NCBI GenBank assembly: GCA_009776375.1
Contig: WRNW01000001.1
Coordinates: 34,600-98,599 of the forward strand
Reading direction: 5' to 3'
Length of the DNA stretch: 64,000 bases
Source: Candidatus Saccharimonadota bacterium
GTDB taxonomy: Bacteria > Patescibacteriota > Saccharimonadia > Saccharimonadales > Saccharimonadaceae
Notes under the pieces: generated by a model
Told to the model about the DNA's origin: nothing
Database searches by the model: none
What the model saw: the letters and a program-made list of their open reading frames with translations, nothing else
Shown here: positions 17,909-28,798 of the stretch, piece by piece
Layout: each line of letters begins with the position of its first letter
How positions within the stretch are numbered: the first letter of the stretch is position 1
Program-made: the position numbers and the translations under genes

Positions 17909-17938
17909 TTGACATGATAAAAATGCTTGTGCTACAAT
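17909..17938 (+). promoter_or_regulatory. canonical promoter TTGACA-18-TGCTACAAT for the TasA-like operon
   Basis: -35 at 17909-17914 and -10 at 17933-17938. The 5' UTR hairpin TCTCAA-GTATTG-TTGAGA (17958-17975) abuts the SD. Confidence 0.7.
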
Positions 17939-17991: not shown

Positions 17992-18618
17992 ATGGCAAAA
18001 AAGAAAAATCTAGGGCTCGACAAGAAGACCCTGAATTACATCATCGCTGGTTTTGCGGTGTTGGTTTTGGGCGGTGTTGTCTGGGCAGCTTCGACGGGTG
18101 TGCTACAAATCACTGGTTCGGTCAGTCGCGGTACATCAGTTGACCTCGACTTTATCACGGCATCATGCGTTACGCCGAAAACCGGTTATGGCACCGATGG
18201 TGTCACCTCGACCGGCGCGGCTGGCGGTGACCTCGGTTGCGGTCTCGTGATCGGTAATCGACCGGCCGTGGCTAACGGGGCTAACGACACTTTGACATTT
18301 GGTATGTTCCTAGGTGACGCTGGCGACGCGGAAACTGTCCAGTTCTATATCAAGAACGTTGGTGCGGTTGATACAACTCTTAGCGCAATTAATGTGACTG
18401 ATACAACCGGTTTTGGGGCCAGCCCAACTGGTAATGATATCACGCTCGGTGGTACTTATGCTTCAGGACTCGCTTCCCCGCTGTGTCTCGAGCCAGGTGA
18501 TCAGGTTGGACCATTCACCATTTCGGCGACTTGGCCATCAGGTTTGACTGGTGCGAGTGGCGATGCGTCGTTTGCAGCCGATCTTGATTATGCGGAAGCT
18601 TCCGTTGCTTGTATCTAG
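17992..18618 (+). CDS. TasA/camelysin-like secreted protein, paralog 1
   Basis: Basic N-terminus, TM helix, VWA|ASTGVLQITG, DAGDAETVQFYIKNVGAV, ATWPSG. Confidence 0.55.
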   Translation: MAKKKNLGLDKKTLNYIIAGFAVLVLGGVVWAASTGVLQITGSVSRGTSVDLDFITASCVTPKTGYGTDGVTSTGAAGGDLGCGLVIGNRPAVANGANDTLTFGMFLGDAGDAETVQFYIKNVGAVDTTLSAINVTDTTGFGASPTGNDITLGGTYASGLASPLCLEPGDQVGPFTISATWPSGLTGASGDASFAADLDYAEASVACI

Positions 18619-18654: not shown

Positions 18655-19188
18655 ATGGCGCTCCGAAAAAGAGTTAACTTACGCAGGTTAGCAGCGCCAA
18701 TTGCAGTAGCTGCGGTGTTAGTCGTGTCTGGTATCGTCTACGCCGCAGCTTCTGGCTATCTCAATTTTAGTGGTTCAGTCGGGCGGAATGCCAGCTGTAA
18801 ATTAAATATTGAGGCAGCGAGCAATGTCAATTCTAGTTCGACGACGCTCTATCAGGCGGATCCGACCGTCACCGCGACGGTTGATGGATCGACGCGCGAA
18901 ACTCTGAGTTTTTCGACCAACCTGACCTATGGCGATCCCGCCAAGGAAATCACTTTCCAGGTGATCAATGTCGGCAACTGTTACCAAGAGCTCGGTGAGT
19001 TAGAAATTTTGACCTCGCCCAGTAATGGTATCACTGTGACTTGGCCAGATCTCGATGGTCTTCAACTCGAGCCAGAAGCTTCGACCGGAACGATGACGAT
19101 CGAAGTCGAGTGGGCGTCTAATCCGTCGTCACAAACCACTGAAACAATGTCAGCCAGGATTGATTATTTCGAATACGTTCCAGATTAG
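18655..19188 (+). CDS. TasA/camelysin-like secreted protein, paralog 2
   Basis: VYA|AASGYLNFSG, GDPAKEITFQVINVGN, VTWPDLDG. Confidence 0.55.
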   Translation: MALRKRVNLRRLAAPIAVAAVLVVSGIVYAAASGYLNFSGSVGRNASCKLNIEAASNVNSSSTTLYQADPTVTATVDGSTRETLSFSTNLTYGDPAKEITFQVINVGNCYQELGELEILTSPSNGITVTWPDLDGLQLEPEASTGTMTIEVEWASNPSSQTTETMSARIDYFEYVPD

Positions 19189-19237: not shown

Positions 19238-19786
19238 ATGGCAAAGAAACTAAAGAAGCAATCGAGTTTTAAAAGAGCGGTCGCGTTCGCTAAACGACAT
19301 CGCGTCAGTATGTCGTTGATATTTTTGTTTTTCCTCGGTTTTATTTCGACAGGTCTAGCCTATGCGGCGGTGACTGGCGAATTACGCTGGTTTGGTACAA
19401 CGGCTTGGCTTAGTCAAACTAATGTTGATATTACTGGCGGTAAACTCCGTGACCTGAGTAATCCGGGAGATAGTCTAAGTGTTTCGATGGATGGTAAAAC
19501 CATAGTCTTTCATCTAGAATTTGAGAAAATCGATACACCAAAGTGGATTGATTTTTGTCTGACCAATAATGGTGCTGCGAACGTGTTATTTAGCACACCA
19601 ACGGTTTCACCACCAACCGATCCGAATGTCACGGTGATTTGGCCAGCGCTGGCGGGGGTGACGTTGAACGTTGGGCAAACTGTCTGTAACACGCTAACCC
19701 AGGTCCAGGTTTATTACACGGCGATGCCAACGAGCGGTCCTTATTCAGCAACGATGGATATGAGTATTAATTATGAGCAAATTTAA
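19238..19786 (+). CDS. TasA/camelysin-like secreted protein, paralog 3
   Basis: AYA|AVTGELRWFG, WIDFCLTNNGAA, VIWPALAG. Confidence 0.5.
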   Translation: MAKKLKKQSSFKRAVAFAKRHRVSMSLIFLFFLGFISTGLAYAAVTGELRWFGTTAWLSQTNVDITGGKLRDLSNPGDSLSVSMDGKTIVFHLEFEKIDTPKWIDFCLTNNGAANVLFSTPTVSPPTDPNVTVIWPALAGVTLNVGQTVCNTLTQVQVYYTAMPTSGPYSATMDMSINYEQI

Positions 19787-20378
19787 TGATGATAAATTAA
19801 AGAGTCATAGTTCCGTCAATATCTATAAACGGCGTTATTCGGCACGTGTGAAATTATTAATCGCCATCATGGTTTTTGCTTTTTCGTTTTCGGTTTCGTC
19901 GGTTTATGCGTTGTCGACCGGTTGGTTGACAATGACAGGTCTGGCGGCGCGCACCGAAATTATCCAAGCGATTTTTTCTTCGGCGAATTTGGTCGGAGCA
20001 CCGCGGGCGGGCGAAACTGTGACAATTTCCTCGGCGGATGCTGATCGGGTGATTAATGCTTCGTTGCTGCTGGCTGGACCGGGCGATTCGCGAACTATTC
20101 AATTCAAAATTACCAATACTGGTAACCAGGCGATTCGTTTGCTGAATCTGTCGCCTTATGTCGAGAGTAGCGGTACTGGGCTAACTGTGCAGTGGCCGGA
20201 TGATATTGGTGGTACGCCCAATCTAACGAATTATGTGATAACACCAGGTACAACGTCAGATACTTTTTCGATTATTGTTGGTTGGGATGTTAGTGCGACG
20301 AATGTTGATACCGGTTTGTTTCGTAATTTCTCGATGACTTTTAGTTTTCAGAATGCTAGTTTACCATATGGACCATAA
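19773..20378 (+). CDS. TasA/camelysin-like secreted protein, paralog 4
   Basis: VYA|LSTGWLTMTG. LAGPGDSRTIQFKITNTGNQAIRL resembles the TasA NLKPGD..F.F.NNGSLAI block. VQWPDDIG. Confidence 0.55.
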   Translation: MSKFNDDKLKSHSSVNIYKRRYSARVKLLIAIMVFAFSFSVSSVYALSTGWLTMTGLAARTEIIQAIFSSANLVGAPRAGETVTISSADADRVINASLLLAGPGDSRTIQFKITNTGNQAIRLLNLSPYVESSGTGLTVQWPDDIGGTPNLTNYVITPGTTSDTFSIIVGWDVSATNVDTGLFRNFSMTFSFQNASLPYGP

Positions 20379-20396: not shown

Positions 20397-21056
20397 ATGA
20401 CAGTGCCAGTTAAAAGAACCATTCGCAAAATCGCTAGCCTTAGCGCGGTGATGGCTTTTACTGGTTTGGTGATTAGTCTAGGGATTACCTATGCGGTTGG
20501 CGCGGGCCAAATGGAGATTAGCGGGCAGGCGTTCTTTATGGTGCAGAGTGGACTCGATCCGTTGATTTTGCCGATCGCACCGACGCCAGATGGTAATGGA
20601 GATTATTTTACATTTAATGCTACTGGTAATGGTACAGTGCAAATTCTTGAGCAGGATTACCTGAGCGGTGACCTGTATCTGTCAATTTGTGCGATGAACT
20701 CGAACAACGGTAATGTTTCGGGGTCGTTTACGTTTGCTTTTGCTAATCCAACAGTTTATGACTGGACGAGTGGCAGTGCCAGCTTCGTTTCACCCTGGCC
20801 GGTCAATCAGGGAGGTCTAGCAAATAATTCCTTTACCTTTAACTCGAGTTCGGTTTCACCAACGACTTTGTTGGCTGGTAATTCCGCCACCGTGACGTTT
20901 GCTTTCCAGGCCCAACTCGGCAAACCTGCTACTCAGGGTTCAGCGATTATTACGGTGCAATACACTGTCGCCGAGGATTATCTCCAACCGATCAAACAAA
21001 CGCATATTTATGTGAAATATTATCCGCGTGACGCGACTTATGGATGTAGCCTATGA
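20397..21056 (+). CDS. TasA/camelysin-like secreted protein, paralog 5 (most divergent)
   Basis: TYA|VGAGQMEISG and SPWPVNQG; same architecture; ATGA overlap with the peptidase gene. Confidence 0.45.
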   Translation: MTVPVKRTIRKIASLSAVMAFTGLVISLGITYAVGAGQMEISGQAFFMVQSGLDPLILPIAPTPDGNGDYFTFNATGNGTVQILEQDYLSGDLYLSICAMNSNNGNVSGSFTFAFANPTVYDWTSGSASFVSPWPVNQGGLANNSFTFNSSSVSPTTLLAGNSATVTFAFQAQLGKPATQGSAIITVQYTVAEDYLQPIKQTHIYVKYYPRDATYGCSL

Positions 21057-22204
21057 TCAAGAAAAAGTGGTTGGTTTTAATTATTTACACCGCCATGGTG
21101 GTAATTCACGGTCTGGCTCTAGTTATTCCAGCGAATTTTTATGATACTTATTTTAATATCCTCCGACCGCTCGCCTACATCGCGCTAGTGATTTTTGCTT
21201 ACTTTAGTTTTGGCAAGAATTACCGGCTGCATGGTGGGAAAACTACCCTGACGATGGTGGCGATTTTGGGAGTGGTTCTCTATGTTGGATTTACTTTCGC
21301 TGCCGGATTGTTCACTAATTTTGCGGCCAATGCGATGGATACTTCGCCGCTGGGACTGTTGCGCAATGGTTGGGCGTATCTCCTGGTGATTGTTATTCGT
21401 GAACTATTGCGCGCCCAGATTATGACGTCGTTTGGCGAAAAGTCGAAATACTGGATGTGCATTGTCATGACGATTGTCTTTACGTTCTGCTGTATCGATA
21501 ATTTACCAAATGTGCTGCGTTTTGATCTCTGGCAACAGGTTGATTATATCTTTACGACGCTGCTGCCGCTGCTGGCGCTGAACCTCTGGCTGTCTTATTC
21601 GGCGCTCAATGGTGGTCTAACTAGTAACTTGATTTTCATTTGTGCCTATTACGCGGTCGCGCTATTTTGTCCGATTCTGCCGAATATTCCGAAAATTCTC
21701 GATGCGATTGCGATTTATTGTATTACCTTTATTATGTTTATTATTTATGACAGTATCGAATGGATGGCCAAACGCCGCGATGGTTTGAATGTCCAATATC
21801 ACGACAAACGTCATTGGTGGGTGATGATTTTCCCCGGGATCGTGCTAGCGGTTTGTGTGATGTTTGGTCTAGGTATTTTTCCGATTATTCCGGTGGCGGT
21901 GGCGTCTGATTCGATGTCACCCGAATTCAAACATGGCGATTTGGTTTATGTCATCAAAATACCGATTGATGATTTGGAGCGGGGCGATATTTTGCAATAT
22001 ACCCAAGGCAACATCTCGATTGTTCATCGGATAATCGACATTAAATACACGCCGAGCGGTGCGCGTTATTTTGTCACCCAGGGCGATAATAATGCGACTC
22101 CTGATGTCTGGCCGGTTTACGACCACCAAGTGGTTGGCAAGGCCATCGCCCATACCCCTTTCATTGGTTGGCCAGCTTTACTATTTCAAGGTTTAAGGGA
22201 ATAA
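21053..22204 (+). CDS. archaeal/ER (SipW)-type signal peptidase I fused to an N-terminal polytopic membrane domain
   Basis: C-terminal 100 aa: SDSMSPEFKHGDLV, IVHRI, TQGDNN (Ser/His S26B-type pattern). The first ~280 aa contain ~7-8 hydrophobic helices. Confidence 0.7.
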   Translation: MIKKKWLVLIIYTAMVVIHGLALVIPANFYDTYFNILRPLAYIALVIFAYFSFGKNYRLHGGKTTLTMVAILGVVLYVGFTFAAGLFTNFAANAMDTSPLGLLRNGWAYLLVIVIRELLRAQIMTSFGEKSKYWMCIVMTIVFTFCCIDNLPNVLRFDLWQQVDYIFTTLLPLLALNLWLSYSALNGGLTSNLIFICAYYAVALFCPILPNIPKILDAIAIYCITFIMFIIYDSIEWMAKRRDGLNVQYHDKRHWWVMIFPGIVLAVCVMFGLGIFPIIPVAVASDSMSPEFKHGDLVYVIKIPIDDLERGDILQYTQGNISIVHRIIDIKYTPSGARYFVTQGDNNATPDVWPVYDHQVVGKAIAHTPFIGWPALLFQGLRE

Positions 22205-22249
22205 AATGGGGTTGCCAAAACGTTTAAGTTTAACTACAATAGAAAGGAT

Positions 22250-23398
22250 ATGATGAAGAAAAGTAAGAAAAGTTCTACAAAAAATGCATCGACCAAGGCC
22301 GAAGTTAGGACAGGTTTTGTCGCCCTAGCGGTAGTGTGTTTCGTAATCGCAGCGGCGGGTGTAGTGTCGTTCCTTTTAAAAACCGTTGGTGCTGAAGCTC
22401 CGGCTGACTATATTCATATGGCCGAAACTAGTGGTATCGATTACCAGGTCTACCTCAAACCGGACAACGGCGTGGTTAATAAACCATATCTCGGGATGAA
22501 CGAAACTTATACTTATGATATTGTCGATCGTATCGTTTTCACCAATTCTTATACTAGTCAATTGTCGCAAGCCACCAACGTTAAATATAATTACTCGGCG
22601 ACGATTTCGTTTATTGCTCGTGTCGCTCGGGGTAATATTATTAGCGATTCTGATCCAATTATCGCCGAGGAAGTGGTCGAAACACTCTGGCAATATGACG
22701 CTGACCAACCAGACGGCAATTCGAGTTTAGTCGAACGATCCGAAATTAATTTGGAGCGTTTCCGCGATAAGTATTCATCGATTAAATCTAGTTTGGATTT
22801 CACCGTCAGCGGTGAAATTCGGATTGATCTCGTCGTCAAGGCTAGCGATGGCGCTTCGCTCAATAACGAGTACAAACGTTCGATCACGATTCCGATTAGT
22901 CAATCTTACTTTGAAATCAAACTGGGTGGCGAAGACAAAAAAGAAACTGATTTCAATGCACCATCACGAACCACTGCCGAAGTGTTAGCTTTAGTGGCGC
23001 TGGGCGCGGGAGCGATTGGTGCTTTCGCGGTGATGCTCTTTTGCATCAAAAAAGCCCTCAGCTATAAATCCTGGTATCGCGAAGAAATCGATGCGTTGCT
23101 CAGTGATTACGATGACGCGATCATTGCGACCACCACGACGGTCAATCCCAAACACTACAAAGAACACATTGCGGTCGAGAGTTTCAAAGAAATGTTACAA
23201 CTAGCGACCGATATCGGCGAACCGATCATGTACTATGAGACTTCGAAAACGGCGGATTTCTACATTCCCAAGGAAGATATTTTATACACTTTCGTGATTA
23301 GAAAAACCGCCAAAGAACCAGAAGAATTCAAACCTCGACGCGAAATCGAGGCCGAAGAAGAAAAAGCCCTAGCCCACGGCAGCGATCAAAAAGAATAA
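22250..23398 (+). CDS. two-TM membrane protein with large external domain (DUF5305-like architecture, uncertain)
   Basis: TM1 VALAVVCFVIAAAGVVSFLL, a ~210-aa external domain, TM2 LALVALGAGAIGAFAVMLFCI, and a ~110-aa cytoplasmic tail. Confidence 0.45.
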   Translation: MMKKSKKSSTKNASTKAEVRTGFVALAVVCFVIAAAGVVSFLLKTVGAEAPADYIHMAETSGIDYQVYLKPDNGVVNKPYLGMNETYTYDIVDRIVFTNSYTSQLSQATNVKYNYSATISFIARVARGNIISDSDPIIAEEVVETLWQYDADQPDGNSSLVERSEINLERFRDKYSSIKSSLDFTVSGEIRIDLVVKASDGASLNNEYKRSITIPISQSYFEIKLGGEDKKETDFNAPSRTTAEVLALVALGAGAIGAFAVMLFCIKKALSYKSWYREEIDALLSDYDDAIIATTTTVNPKHYKEHIAVESFKEMLQLATDIGEPIMYYETSKTADFYIPKEDILYTFVIRKTAKEPEEFKPRREIEAEEEKALAHGSDQKE

Positions 23399-25978: not shown

Positions 25979-28798
25979 TTAAATTACTTTTGCTCTCAGC
26001 TCCTTCTTCGCCAGATCCGCAATTCCATCTATTATACCAGCAATTTCTTTGCTATTCAAAGTTTTTTCATAAGACGCGAAAGTTAGTTTGAAACTGATAT
26101 TTTTGGTCTTTTTGTCCTCTCCCTGCCAGATCGAAACCGGAACACACTGAAACCATAAATTCTGTTCGGTCAAAGTTTTACAGAGGAGATTTTCGAGTTT
26201 TGCATATTCCAAATCGGAATATACTCGAAAAGTTATGTCACGTTCGACTTCTGGAAAATCGCTACGTTTCGAAACATCATTCACGCCAGACACAGCCGCC
26301 ATTAAATTATTAATATTGATTTCAAAGCCCGCCACTTCGTCGGGTAACTTGAAACTTCGCCGAACCGTCGTACGATAATTACCAACAATACCCAAAATCT
26401 TGTCGGTTTTCGCATCACGTATATCAGCCGTTCGTTTCAACTCGAATGGCACAGTCCAAGAATTTTGCACTTCGACTGATTTGAAAACCACATCCACGCC
26501 CAGAGCCTTGAATAAATCTTCGGCATATTTTTTGGCTCTATAAAAAGAGCCTTCTTGATCGCTCACCAGGACTAACCCCAACGCATTTTCAACTATCGGC
26601 ACACCGCCGTCTTTTGGATCCTTATGAAACTTGATGAATTCTTTATCGAAAACCTGGTTTATTTCGAACAGTGCGAACTCATCGAACTTGTCTTTGATGT
26701 TTGGGCTTACTTTTTCCAGCAAACTGGGCGTTATCATTTGGCGAATATATTGCAATTCAGGACTAATCGAATTGATGATTTTATAAGAGTTTTTGGAATC
26801 TTGTCCAACATTTTTTAACAGCTTTTCACTGATGAACGAATAGGTCAACACCTCATTAGCGCCAGCTTCTGACAGAATCTGGCGGATTTTCGATTTTAGA
26901 TCACCTAAAGTATCTGGTGTCGGCGACACAAAATCCCGCCGCGGCAAGCGTGCCGGGATGTTGTCATAACCGTTGAGCCGTCCAATTTCCTCAATCACGT
27001 CCTCGGCAATATGAATATCCGTTCGCCACCACGGTGCGGTAACTTTAAGGTAGCCACCGTCATTGCGAGGAGCGGAGCGACGCGGCAATCCAGAATCGTT
27101 TCTAATCGCACTGGATTGCTTTGTTGCGCTCGCAATGACGCCACTTCCCAGTGTTACTTTGAACCCAACATTCGACAGCGTGGTAATAATATCGTCAAAA
27201 GTAAAACCACTACCCAGCAGATTATTCACTTGTTCTGTTGTAACTTTTACAACAGGTGGTTTAACCGGTTTTGGATAAGCATCAACAATTTCGCTAACCG
27301 ACTTCATACCATGGTCGTTCGTCAGCGTTCTGATCGCTTCGCATAAAACCGGATCGGTCAAGGCTGGTGGTTGACCTTTGGTGAAACGCGTGATAGCTTC
27401 GCTAAAAATTCCGTGTCTAAACTGCGTTCCACGTAGATTATACAAACTAAACGTCGCCGATTCGATGACGATGCGGCGGGTCGATTCGTCGATTTCGGTA
27501 TTTTTACCACCCATCGCCCCAGCCAACGCTACTGGCACGTTGTTGCTGGTGATAACGATGTCACCCGGATCCAGCTCGATCGTTTTATCATCGAGTAGCT
27601 CGAGTTTTTCATTCTTTTTCGCCGCACGAACGATTATATGAGCGTTGTCATTCTGAGCCGCAGACGAAGAATCTCTTGAACTTTCTTTAGATCCTTCGCT
27701 CCGCTCAGGATGACAGCCTACGGCTATCAACTTATCATAATCAAAAGCATGCAGCGGCTGTCCGGTTAACAGCATCAAATAATTCGTCACATCCACAATC
27801 GGATTAATCGAACGCATGCCAGATTTGGCTAGCAGCACCGCCATCTCGGATAAATATTTCGACGGCTTGTCGTCAAATCCATCCAACACCAACGCCTGAT
27901 AGCGTGGGCAAAGTTTCGGATCTGTTATCTCAACATCCAATTCTATTGTGTCATTGCGACCGCGAGCGCGCGAAGCGAGCGTGGCGGGAAGCAATCCAGT
28001 ATCATTATCAGCCGCACTAGATTGCTCTTGCCCAGCACCTGCTTTAGCTGGTGCTGTGGTCGTCGTTACACTCCTCGCAATGACATCTGGCTCTTGAAAT
28101 TCTTTCCCCAAAATCCCCGCGACTTCGCGCGCAAAACCAATCACGCCAAAGCAATCTGGTCGATGAGTCAGCGATTTATTTTCAATATCTAGTAGTGTGT
28201 CATTCAGGTCAAATACTTCGGCGAAGTCATCGCCCGGTTTCGCCATTTCGGGGTTTATCTCGATAATTCCTGCGTGATCCGCGCCCAGGTCTAGCTCGTC
28301 CATAGCGGCAAGCATCCCAGCCGATTCCACCCCCATGACTTTACGTTTATCTAAAACCAATGGTTCAGAATTAAATGTTGCTGGCAAAACTGTTTTTGGT
28401 GGCAACCAAACCGCCAACATACCAGTCCGCACATTCGGTGCGCCACAAACAACCTGAATTAAATTGTCATCGCGATCCGCCCCACCGTCATTGCGACCGC
28501 GAGCGAGCGAAGCAAGCGTGGCGGGAAACAATCCAGGGTCATCGCCAGTCGCACTAGATTGCTTCGTCGTTACACTCCTCGCAATGACACCAGTATCAAC
28601 CTGACAAACTGTCAAGTGATCACTGCCGGGAATTTTTTCAACCGATCTGACTTCAACAATTTTAATCCCACGATATTTTTCGCCCAAGTCGATCACTTCT
28701 TCAACTTCAACCAATCGTGATCCGATTAGCTCGACCAACTCGTTTGTCGGCAGATCAATATCAACGTATTTTTTCAACCAATCTAATGAAATAATCAT
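25979..28798 (-). CDS. pheT: phenylalanine--tRNA ligase beta subunit
   Basis: MIISLDWLKKYVDI start, tRNA-binding, B3/B4 and C-terminal domains; 939 aa because of four palindromic inserts. Confidence 0.9.
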   Translation of the reverse strand: MIISLDWLKKYVDIDLPTNELVELIGSRLVEVEEVIDLGEKYRGIKIVEVRSVEKIPGSDHLTVCQVDTGVIARSVTTKQSSATGDDPGLFPATLASLARGRNDGGADRDDNLIQVVCGAPNVRTGMLAVWLPPKTVLPATFNSEPLVLDKRKVMGVESAGMLAAMDELDLGADHAGIIEINPEMAKPGDDFAEVFDLNDTLLDIENKSLTHRPDCFGVIGFAREVAGILGKEFQEPDVIARSVTTTTAPAKAGAGQEQSSAADNDTGLLPATLASRARGRNDTIELDVEITDPKLCPRYQALVLDGFDDKPSKYLSEMAVLLAKSGMRSINPIVDVTNYLMLLTGQPLHAFDYDKLIAVGCHPERSEGSKESSRDSSSAAQNDNAHIIVRAAKKNEKLELLDDKTIELDPGDIVITSNNVPVALAGAMGGKNTEIDESTRRIVIESATFSLYNLRGTQFRHGIFSEAITRFTKGQPPALTDPVLCEAIRTLTNDHGMKSVSEIVDAYPKPVKPPVVKVTTEQVNNLLGSGFTFDDIITTLSNVGFKVTLGSGVIASATKQSSAIRNDSGLPRRSAPRNDGGYLKVTAPWWRTDIHIAEDVIEEIGRLNGYDNIPARLPRRDFVSPTPDTLGDLKSKIRQILSEAGANEVLTYSFISEKLLKNVGQDSKNSYKIINSISPELQYIRQMITPSLLEKVSPNIKDKFDEFALFEINQVFDKEFIKFHKDPKDGGVPIVENALGLVLVSDQEGSFYRAKKYAEDLFKALGVDVVFKSVEVQNSWTVPFELKRTADIRDAKTDKILGIVGNYRTTVRRSFKLPDEVAGFEININNLMAAVSGVNDVSKRSDFPEVERDITFRVYSDLEYAKLENLLCKTLTEQNLWFQCVPVSIWQGEDKKTKNISFKLTFASYEKTLNSKEIAGIIDGIADLAKKELRAKVI
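27059..27139 (-). repeat. palindromic in-frame element, family A (81 bp) in pheT
   Basis: About 85 percent identical by eye to the tktN copy; translated VIASATKQSSAIRNDSGLPRRSAPRND. Confidence 0.85.
27647..27714 (-). repeat. palindromic in-frame element, family B (~68 bp) in pheT
   Basis: GTCATTCTGAGCCGCAGACGAAGAATC...GATCCTTCGCTCCGCTCAGGATGAC; translated CHPERSEGSKESSRDSSSAAQND. Confidence 0.7.
27950..28084 (-). repeat. palindromic in-frame element, family A with nested 33-bp hairpin module (135 bp) in pheT
   Basis: Same backbone as 28487-28588, plus CTCTTGCCCAGCACCTGCTTTAGCTGGTGCTGTGGT. Confidence 0.8.
28487..28588 (-). repeat. palindromic in-frame element, family A (102 bp) in pheT
   Basis: GTCATTGCGACCGCGAGCG...CAATCCAGG...CTAGATTGC...CTCGCAATGAC. 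An extra arm fragment, GTCATCGCGATCC, lies at 28466-28478. Confidence 0.8.

Follow-up and report, generated by a model that had tools for sequence, protein, structure and literature searches.

The window analyzed here is the 64,000-nucleotide stretch from 34,600 to 98,599 (forward strand) of contig WRNW01000001.1, assembly GCA_009776375.1, which belongs to a Candidatus Saccharimonadota bacterium of the family Saccharimonadaceae. At 21053-22204 on the plus strand of this window, the list of open reading frames (ORFs) holds one unbroken frame of 383 aa plus stop, whose ATG and the stop of the gene before it share a 4-nt overlap (ATGA). The encoded protein joins a signal peptidase I domain to a polytopic membrane domain (residues 1-242, hereafter the N-domain), which in predicted structures takes the fold of the CPBP/Rce1 intramembrane proteases. 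The fusion gene stands between five paralogous genes for predicted fiber subunits, upstream, and a gene encoding a DUF5305 protein, downstream. Its parts are the following, in window coordinates:

21053..22204, plus strand: the whole fusion, made up of a CPBP-fold domain, a linker, a transmembrane (TM) anchor and a signal peptidase I domain (ORF list and full-length conservation)

21053..21778, plus strand: eight-TM domain of predicted Rce1/CPBP/SpdC fold and without a sequence family, residues 1-242 (domain-only AlphaFold2 model and structure searches)

21401..21412, plus strand: E117-L-L-R120 on TM4, the only conserved charged motif of the N-domain (codons verified)

21671..21682, plus strand: P207-I-L-P210, conserved, in the outside loop between TM7 and TM8 (alignment and both models)

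21779..21817, plus strand: basic cytoplasmic linker, residues 243-255, with Lys/Arg at 252 and 253 and K240-R242 just before it

21818..21868, plus strand: ninth TM helix, the predicted membrane anchor of the peptidase, residues 256-272 (hydropathy and full-length model)

21884..22201, plus strand: predicted extracytoplasmic signal peptidase I domain of the archaeal/endoplasmic reticulum (Sec11/SipW) type, residues 278-383 (TIGR02228)

21911-21913, 22025-22027, 22085-22087 and 22103-22105, plus strand: codons of the catalytic residues S287, H325, D345 and D351, respectively

Hydropathy and two AlphaFold2 models, one of the full-length protein and one of the N-domain by itself, agreed in placing eight long helices within residues 1-242, and after TM8 hydropathy and AlphaFold2 gave the basic linker, then the helix at 256-272 and finally a domain rich in beta structure (278-372). 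The conserved G274-x-F276-P277 comes directly after the ninth TM helix. About 13 Lys and Arg residues fall in the predicted inside loops, compared with 1-2 in the outside ones, so that the N-terminus is predicted to face inward and the peptidase domain to lie on the outer side, where a signal peptidase has to be. In the full-length model the predicted local distance difference test (pLDDT) score was ~55 in the linker and ranged from 55 to 63 over the linker and TM9. Both models have short strands at 90-92 and 208-210, through which the loop carrying P207-P210 forms a beta-bridge with residues 90-92.

A preliminary description of the window, made from its letters and ORF translations, had read the protein as a SipW/Sec11-type peptidase behind a polytopic domain, with the catalytic module beginning at about residue 285, and this reading is right, the nucleophile being S287. 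Residues 263-374 matched the NCBIfam model TIGR02228 (sigpep_I_arch) with 82.7 bits against a cut-off of 51.85, and with 86 bits in the genome-wide search. The Pfam S26 match stayed below threshold, the equivalog model of Bacillus SipW (NF046067) scored 48.7 bits against a cut-off of 190, and the LepB model was also far under its cut-off. Both in 22 and in 47 aligned sequences, S285-D-S287-M288, H325-R326 and the GDxNxxxD box (G344, D345, N347 and D351) were invariant. This Ser-His-Asp set, with His and not Lys as the presumed general base, assigns the domain, as far as its residues tell, to the Sec11/SipW-type (S26B) signal peptidases I. When the peptidase part was submitted to Foldseek, human SEC11A/C came out best (7p2p_A and 7p2q_A, E 9e-6 and 5.5e-5); the structure comparison program VIA gave 7p2q_A a Z of 12.3, and SipA, LexA and LepB ranked after SEC11A/C. 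The resemblance to the eukaryotic signal peptidase complex (7P2P/7P2Q) lies in the fold of the catalytic domain, whereas the accessory subunits of that complex are unrelated small proteins. Since a housekeeping LepB is encoded on another contig of the same genome (104 bits to TIGR02227), the fusion is an extra, dedicated signal peptidase.

The N-domain gave a different picture. No Pfam or NCBIfam family matched residues 1-260 of the window protein; PF02517 was matched at E<=1 neither by this protein nor by any of 47 N-domain members, and no other Pfam family was matched consistently. A profile of the N-domain searched against the PDB sequences returned nothing at E<=10, and its hhalign comparison with 25 genuine CPBPs from related Saccharibacteria genomes, in local and in global mode, was not significant (probability 1.2%), whereas in the positive control the profile of the genuine CPBPs did recover Rce1 at E 6.4e-5. 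Look-alikes of the domain in the ESM Atlas fell into unnamed clusters only. At the level of sequence, the preliminary remark that these helices carry no placeable motif is therefore true.

Predicted structure, by comparison, pointed to a single superfamily. The domain-only AlphaFold2 model reached a pLDDT of 89.4 and a predicted template modeling (pTM) score of 0.86, and when VIA compared it with 48,161 representative chains only 2 reached Z>=8. These were SpdC from the SagB-SpdC complex (6u0o_A; Z 15.0, 225/248 residues aligned, root-mean-square deviation 4.6) and Rce1 (4cad_C; Z 11.9, 221/251 residues aligned), values to be read with the caveat that helical bundles may reach a Z of ~13 by chance. 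APH-1, which is related to the CAAX proteases (Pei et al. 2011, as cited in PMC12260438), came third at Z 7.3, and unrelated chains stayed at or below 6.2. A second VIA comparison gave 13.8 for SpdC, 12.4 for Rce1 and 7.6 for a 224-aa chain of the multipass translocon; for Rce1, 221-225 of ~252 residues were aligned overall. All of the top four Foldseek matches were Rce1 chains (4cad; probability 0.92-1.0, TM-score 0.42-0.51), with SpdC next, and the full-length model yielded the same two proteins. The coverage of the whole domain, the wide gap to the remaining chains and the confinement of the matches to one superfamily argue against a chance match, and the N-domain is, as modeled, a domain of the CPBP/Rce1 fold.

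The same scores bear on whether the N-domain could be a transporter or a translocation channel for the subunits. Its polytopic nature would suit such a role, which we nevertheless consider highly improbable and rejected on the structure scores and the sequence searches: no transporter or channel exceeded Z 6.2, against 12-15 for SpdC and Rce1, no transporter family was found by sequence, and the subunits bear ordinary Sec-type signal peptides. The structure-similarity search, which the preliminary description had proposed, thus led to SpdC and Rce1 and to no unrelated transporter. The translocation part of its suggestion, a platform for translocation, assembly or anchoring, thus has no support; assembly and anchoring were kept as a rival and are weighed below.

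Conservation within the N-domain is concentrated in few positions. Across 170 aligned N-domains, E117 was present in 170/170 and R120 in 98%; P207 and P210 followed with 97% and 98%, G85 and N105 with 95%, and P172, N177 and Y182 with 87-88%. None of the alignment columns exceeded 18% His or 15% Cys, so that motifs 2 (FxxxH) and 3 (HxxxN/D) of the CPBP proteins are missing across the whole family. The E117/R120 pair is a possible remnant of CPBP motif 1 (EExxxR on TM4), here reduced to ExxR with a single Glu; E117 is plausibly equivalent to E140 of Rce1, given that helix and depth agree (TM4, inner half of the membrane), and R120 may correspond to R145. The likeness to Rce1 and the CPBP proteins (PF02517; 4CAD) would consist of the eight-TM fold and of the conserved Glu and Arg on TM4, and the differences of the loss of motifs 2 and 3, the shortened motif 1 and the lack of hidden Markov model (HMM) or profile-profile similarity. 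That ELLR resembles motif 1 and that the His motifs are absent had been noticed in the preliminary description, and rightly so; what did not hold is its view of the resemblance as a weak one, given that SpdC and Rce1 are the only strong structural matches.

With residues so well conserved, the N-domain might itself be active as an intramembrane protease, through a non-canonical site in which N105, N177 or Y182 would stand in for the histidines beside E117. It would then either remove the cleaved signal peptides from the membrane, as a signal-peptide peptidase built into the fusion, or cut the subunits a second time. The invariant Glu, the nearly invariant Arg and the 87-95% conservation of the three candidate partners speak for this, as do the membership of the fold in a protease family and the role of the motif-1 Glu as the catalytic base of Rce1 (Manolaridis 2013, as cited in PMC12260438). 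Both His motifs needed by active CPBP enzymes are, however, missing family-wide, and SpbR and SpdC keep the motif-1 residues yet are non-catalytic, mutation of these residues being without effect. We know of no precedent for a CPBP protease without His and consider an active N-domain very doubtful.

The fusion proved to be widespread. A word-indexed search returned 32 full-length homologs of 343-411 aa with identities down to 26%, one of them named Candidatus Saccharibacteria, and a scan of one genome per species found the whole architecture in more than 45 loci with ORFs of ~375-405 aa. Most of these loci lie in metagenome-assembled genomes (MAGs) of gut or rumen Clostridia (27-32% identity), the others including Saccharibacteria/Nanosyncoccaceae, Mycoplasmatota/Mollicutes, Erysipelotrichaceae and Bacilli. 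When a profile of the N-domain alone was used for an exhaustive HMMER search, 1,693 cluster representatives scored E<=1e-3 and 1,386 of them E<=1e-10; 123 of the best 149 representatives had the length of the fusion (330-415 aa). Many of the 25 shorter ones among these 149 break off within the peptidase domain or share a cluster with full-length proteins, so that some of the short representatives are truncated. The same profile matched a 399-aa fusion in an AbpX-type locus of a Desulfurococcaceae archaeon at E 3.9e-27. An ORF created from two genes by a sequencing or assembly error has next to no probability under these circumstances, as the same architecture recurs, in several phyla and in bacteria as well as archaea, across hundreds of independent assemblies; we rejected this reading on the conservation of the fusion, and the ORF is real, as the preliminary description had taken it to be.

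Split forms, a survey of which it had proposed, were looked for as well. Among shorter proteins, a search for split forms found one fragment, and beside stand-alone SipW-type peptidases (27 loci) no separate N-domain ORF was present. Two short clusters (P0136, 247 aa, and P0084, 264 aa, on contigs of up to 8 kb) are candidates for split forms, and a metagenome scan with P0136 found nothing. We also considered a 396-aa peptidase of Bathyarchaeia (L077) as a member of the family and rejected it, as its N-terminal region differs.

Within Saccharimonadia the N-domain was detected in 11 of 301 genomes, all from one family. The open frames that hold the 10 strong matches range from 318 to 451 aa, nine of them from 384 to 451 aa. 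In a quick maximum-likelihood tree the Saccharibacteria copies (loci L004, L005, L045, L047, L055 and L110-L114) fell into three separate supported clades, one of which (L110, L045, L047 and L055) was nested among sequences of Bacilli and Erysipelotrichaceae; the cassette was probably acquired by Saccharibacteria more than once, and horizontally.

Several individual loci deserve a brief record. An Erysipelotrichaceae genome (G322) carries two full-length fusion paralogs of 380 and 396 aa (C3:92027-92728 and C12:65524-66243), and its locus L060 has, like the window, five AbpX-like subunit genes in tandem. An Oscillospiraceae MAG (L054:6764-7905) has the fusion broken into an N-terminal ORF of 114 aa and a peptidase ORF of 111 aa beside intact subunit and DUF5305 genes, likely a pseudogene or an assembly error. 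An 812-aa protein on a 4.5 kb ENA contig (P0151) has the N-domain and the first part of the peptidase linked to a calcineurin-like phosphoesterase/5'-nucleotidase region, perhaps because the gene is broken or the gene call chimeric. Other Saccharimonadia (G091, G172, G050, G105, G143, G077 and others) encode TIGR02228-type peptidases in frames of 286-485 aa and, with weaker matches, of ~578 aa; none of these extended peptidases matches the CPBP-fold profile, which points to further, different extended architectures in this class.

The genes around the fusion indicate what its peptidase may act on. They comprise:

17909..17938, plus strand: promoter-like site TTGACA-18-TACAAT with TG (consensus scan, 11/12; pattern match only)

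17992-18618, 18655-19188, 19238-19786, 19773-20378 and 20397-21056, plus strand: five paralogous genes for predicted subunits of the AbpX/TasA superfamily (alignment and profile match)

22250..23398, plus strand: DUF5305 protein, 382 aa (PF17231, E 1.3e-19)

Each of the five upstream ORFs encodes a basic n-region, a hydrophobic core and the conserved motif [WY]-A-x-x-x-G-x-[LM]-x-x-x-G. A profile built from these ORFs and their counterparts elsewhere matched AbpX (9sj2_C, E 2.5e-8; 9rhp_A, E 2.1e-7), and TasA only at E ~0.2, which places the subunits, to judge from the profile, closer to AbpX than to TasA. The AbpX chain is aligned from its residue 2 onward, immediately past the conserved Y-A-A motif, so that cleavage is likely to occur at or next to this motif. 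Together with the conserved neighborhood, the AbpX-profile matches support the earlier proposal, made in the preliminary description, that the five upstream proteins are likely substrates of the fusion peptidase. The gene order of subunit(s), fusion and DUF5305 gene is kept in most of 52 loci and also in that of the Desulfurococcaceae archaeon. The DUF5305 protein has a TM segment at ~17-48, an outside domain, a second TM segment at ~242-267 and a cytoplasmic tail, and is a putative accessory subunit of the peptidase. The promoter-like site at 17909..17938 is the best of the region; 54 nt separate it from the first subunit gene, and the operon likely starts there.

Loci of this kind have recently been outlined. 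A preprint of January 2026 on Pyrodictium AbpX reports that the dedicated signal peptidase I of bacterial and archaeal AbpX loci has ten TM helices, and it calls DUF5305 a likely or putative accessory subunit of the peptidase (bioRxiv 10.64898/2026.01.04.697558). AbpX-like subunits, a polytopic TIGR02228 peptidase and an adjoining DUF5305 gene are common to those loci and to the one in the window, which is set apart by its occurrence in Saccharibacteria and by its five paralogous subunits. Ten TM helices are stated there against nine predicted here: a C-terminal TM is lacking in bacterial members, whose last helix is short and amphipathic, whereas in the archaeal fusion (L115) residues 376-393 make up a tenth hydrophobic segment. 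The preprint spends one sentence on the enzyme and gives its extra helices no fold or function; a search of its text found no mention of CAAX, Rce1 or CPBP (bioRxiv 10.64898/2026.01.04.697558). Our literature search found no description of a fusion between a CAAX/CPBP protein and a signal peptidase, and no fold assigned to the extra helices. The fusion is thus the polytopic signal peptidase of AbpX loci of the kind outlined in that preprint, to which the present analysis adds the CPBP-fold assignment and the link to SpbR-SpsB described below.

Two better-studied systems share the dedicated Sec11-type peptidase beside subunits of the TasA superfamily. SipW, of the Bacillus tapA-sipW-tasA operon, differs in having two TM helices and no polytopic domain. 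In the tafi cluster of Haloarcula, TafD is required for the processing of TafA and is paired with a DUF5305 protein, TafG (PMC11821415); TafD differs in that four TM helices are predicted for it and that it carries a second domain on the outside.

The closest parallels to the N-domain come from polytopic proteins that act on a partner enzyme. SpbR of S. aureus is CAAX-protease-like, its motifs being degenerate (HELYMR, FIYLD, QIVAI), inhibits the signal peptidase SpsB, to whose TM helix and outside domain it binds, and mutations of its motif residues are without effect (PMC12260438). The SpsB helix packs on TM5/TM7 of SpbR, a pairing for which Cys cross-linking has been used. Both cases show a physical coupling, covalent in the fusion, between a type I signal peptidase and a degenerate CAAX/CPBP-like polytopic protein, and in both the Glu and Arg of motif 1 are kept (residues 118-123 of SpbR, against E117/R120). 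The differences are that SpbR and SpsB are two proteins and the fusion is one polypeptide, that SpsB is a Ser-Lys (LepB-type) and the fusion a Ser-His (Sec11/SipW-type) enzyme, and that HMMs still recognize SpbR, and not the N-domain, as CAAX-like. SpdC (LyrA; PDB 6U0O), which is the best structural match of the N-domain and likewise an eight-TM, non-catalytic scaffold of the CPBP fold, orients the single-pass hydrolase SagB without catalysis (bioRxiv 10.1101/2020.05.21.109470); its partner is a glucosaminidase, the two chains are separate, and its sequence identity to the N-domain is ~7-9%. APH-1 is a non-catalytic, CPBP-related scaffold within a protease complex, gamma-secretase (Pei et al. 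2011, as cited in PMC12260438).

Because CPBP-like pseudo-proteases play this part for single-pass hydrolases (SpbR for SpsB, SpdC for SagB, APH-1 for presenilin), we think it fairly probable that the N-domain is a built-in, non-catalytic scaffold or gate of CPBP fold for the peptidase of an AbpX/TasA-type donor-strand fiber operon, and the fusion would be a covalent counterpart of SpbR-SpsB. An active Ser-His peptidase would be held on the outer face of the membrane by the ninth TM helix, where it would remove the long signal peptides of the five upstream subunits at or next to [WY]-A-A. The N-domain, having lost both His motifs and kept its intramembrane Glu-Arg pair, would most likely cut nothing; it would position, gate or tune the peptidase and may dock the transmembrane signal peptides of the substrates, with the DUF5305 protein as a probable further subunit. 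Both the scaffolding or regulatory role and the identity of the substrates are what we infer by analogy with these systems.

Several observations weigh against such a scaffold. The full-length model predicts no confident contact between the N-domain and the peptidase domain (TM9 pLDDT ~60). The link to the CPBP proteins comes from predicted structure alone, without sequence-level support of any sort (PF02517, hhalign and the PDB profile search being all negative), and the spacing of E117 and R120 is ExxR, not EExxxR. The invariance of E117 in 170 sequences of 15-25% identity exceeds what a purely structural role needs. SpbR, finally, is an inhibitor, and an inhibitor fused permanently to its target makes little sense, so that the role of the N-domain must differ in detail from that of SpbR, being one of positioning or gating and not of inhibition.

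The N-domain could instead serve the fiber itself, as an assembly or anchoring platform that holds the base of the growing donor-strand polymer or its first subunit in the membrane and is independent of any control over the peptidase. Outside fusions with the peptidase of fiber loci it hardly occurs, and its conserved outside loops (F90 and P207-P210) could touch subunits. In Bacillus, TapA is needed as a separate fiber anchor or nucleator. The known CPBP-fold scaffolds, however, bind their enzyme partner and not its product, the sequence gives no hint of a subunit-binding strand, and many loci have separate candidate anchors in the form of DUF5305, SLH or LPXTG proteins (bioRxiv 10.64898/2026.01.04.697558), which makes a platform of this sort unlikely in our estimate.

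A bolder version of the partnership, to which we give a small but real chance, would be a prokaryotic signal peptidase complex of several subunits, with the Sec11-like domain joined by both the CPBP-fold domain and the DUF5305 protein. There the N-domain would read the unusually long signal peptides of the fiber subunits within the membrane and so set specificity, or else would clear the cleaved ones as a His-less, Glu-dependent intramembrane protease. If this were true, the partnership of CPBP fold and signal peptidase would be ancient and common to archaea and bacteria, and not a staphylococcal peculiarity.

For the scaffold or gate that we favor, the interest lies in what it would say about signal peptidases, which are usually regarded as simple enzymes of one or two helices. 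The first regulator of a bacterial signal peptidase, the CAAX-protease-like pseudo-enzyme SpbR, was described only in 2025, and the present family would be a natural 'Rosetta-stone' joining of both protein types. Because at least 1,386 cluster representatives (E<=1e-10) occur in bacteria and at least one member in an archaeon, the partnership appears to be old and general, and the fusion offers a compact system in which to ask what CPBP-fold pseudo-proteases do to their partner enzymes. Saccharibacteria live attached to other bacteria. As a horizontally acquired cassette for a surface fiber, the operon in the window could bear on this attachment or on life in biofilms.

Some minor features were recorded along the way. 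In the Clostridia loci L006-L036 the fusion ends in a conserved acidic tail (...VETG[NK]) and the subunits end in a conserved ...YEQ-x-T-...-H-[TS]-D-A, neither of which occurs in the corresponding window proteins. The 45-nt gap between the fusion and the DUF5305 gene contains a second promoter-like site at 22212-22240 on the plus strand (TTGCCA-17-TACAAT, 10/12), likewise a pattern match only. Further downstream, the pheT ORF at 25979-28798 on the minus strand contains repeated in-frame stretches (ARSVTT...GLLPATLAS.ARGRND).

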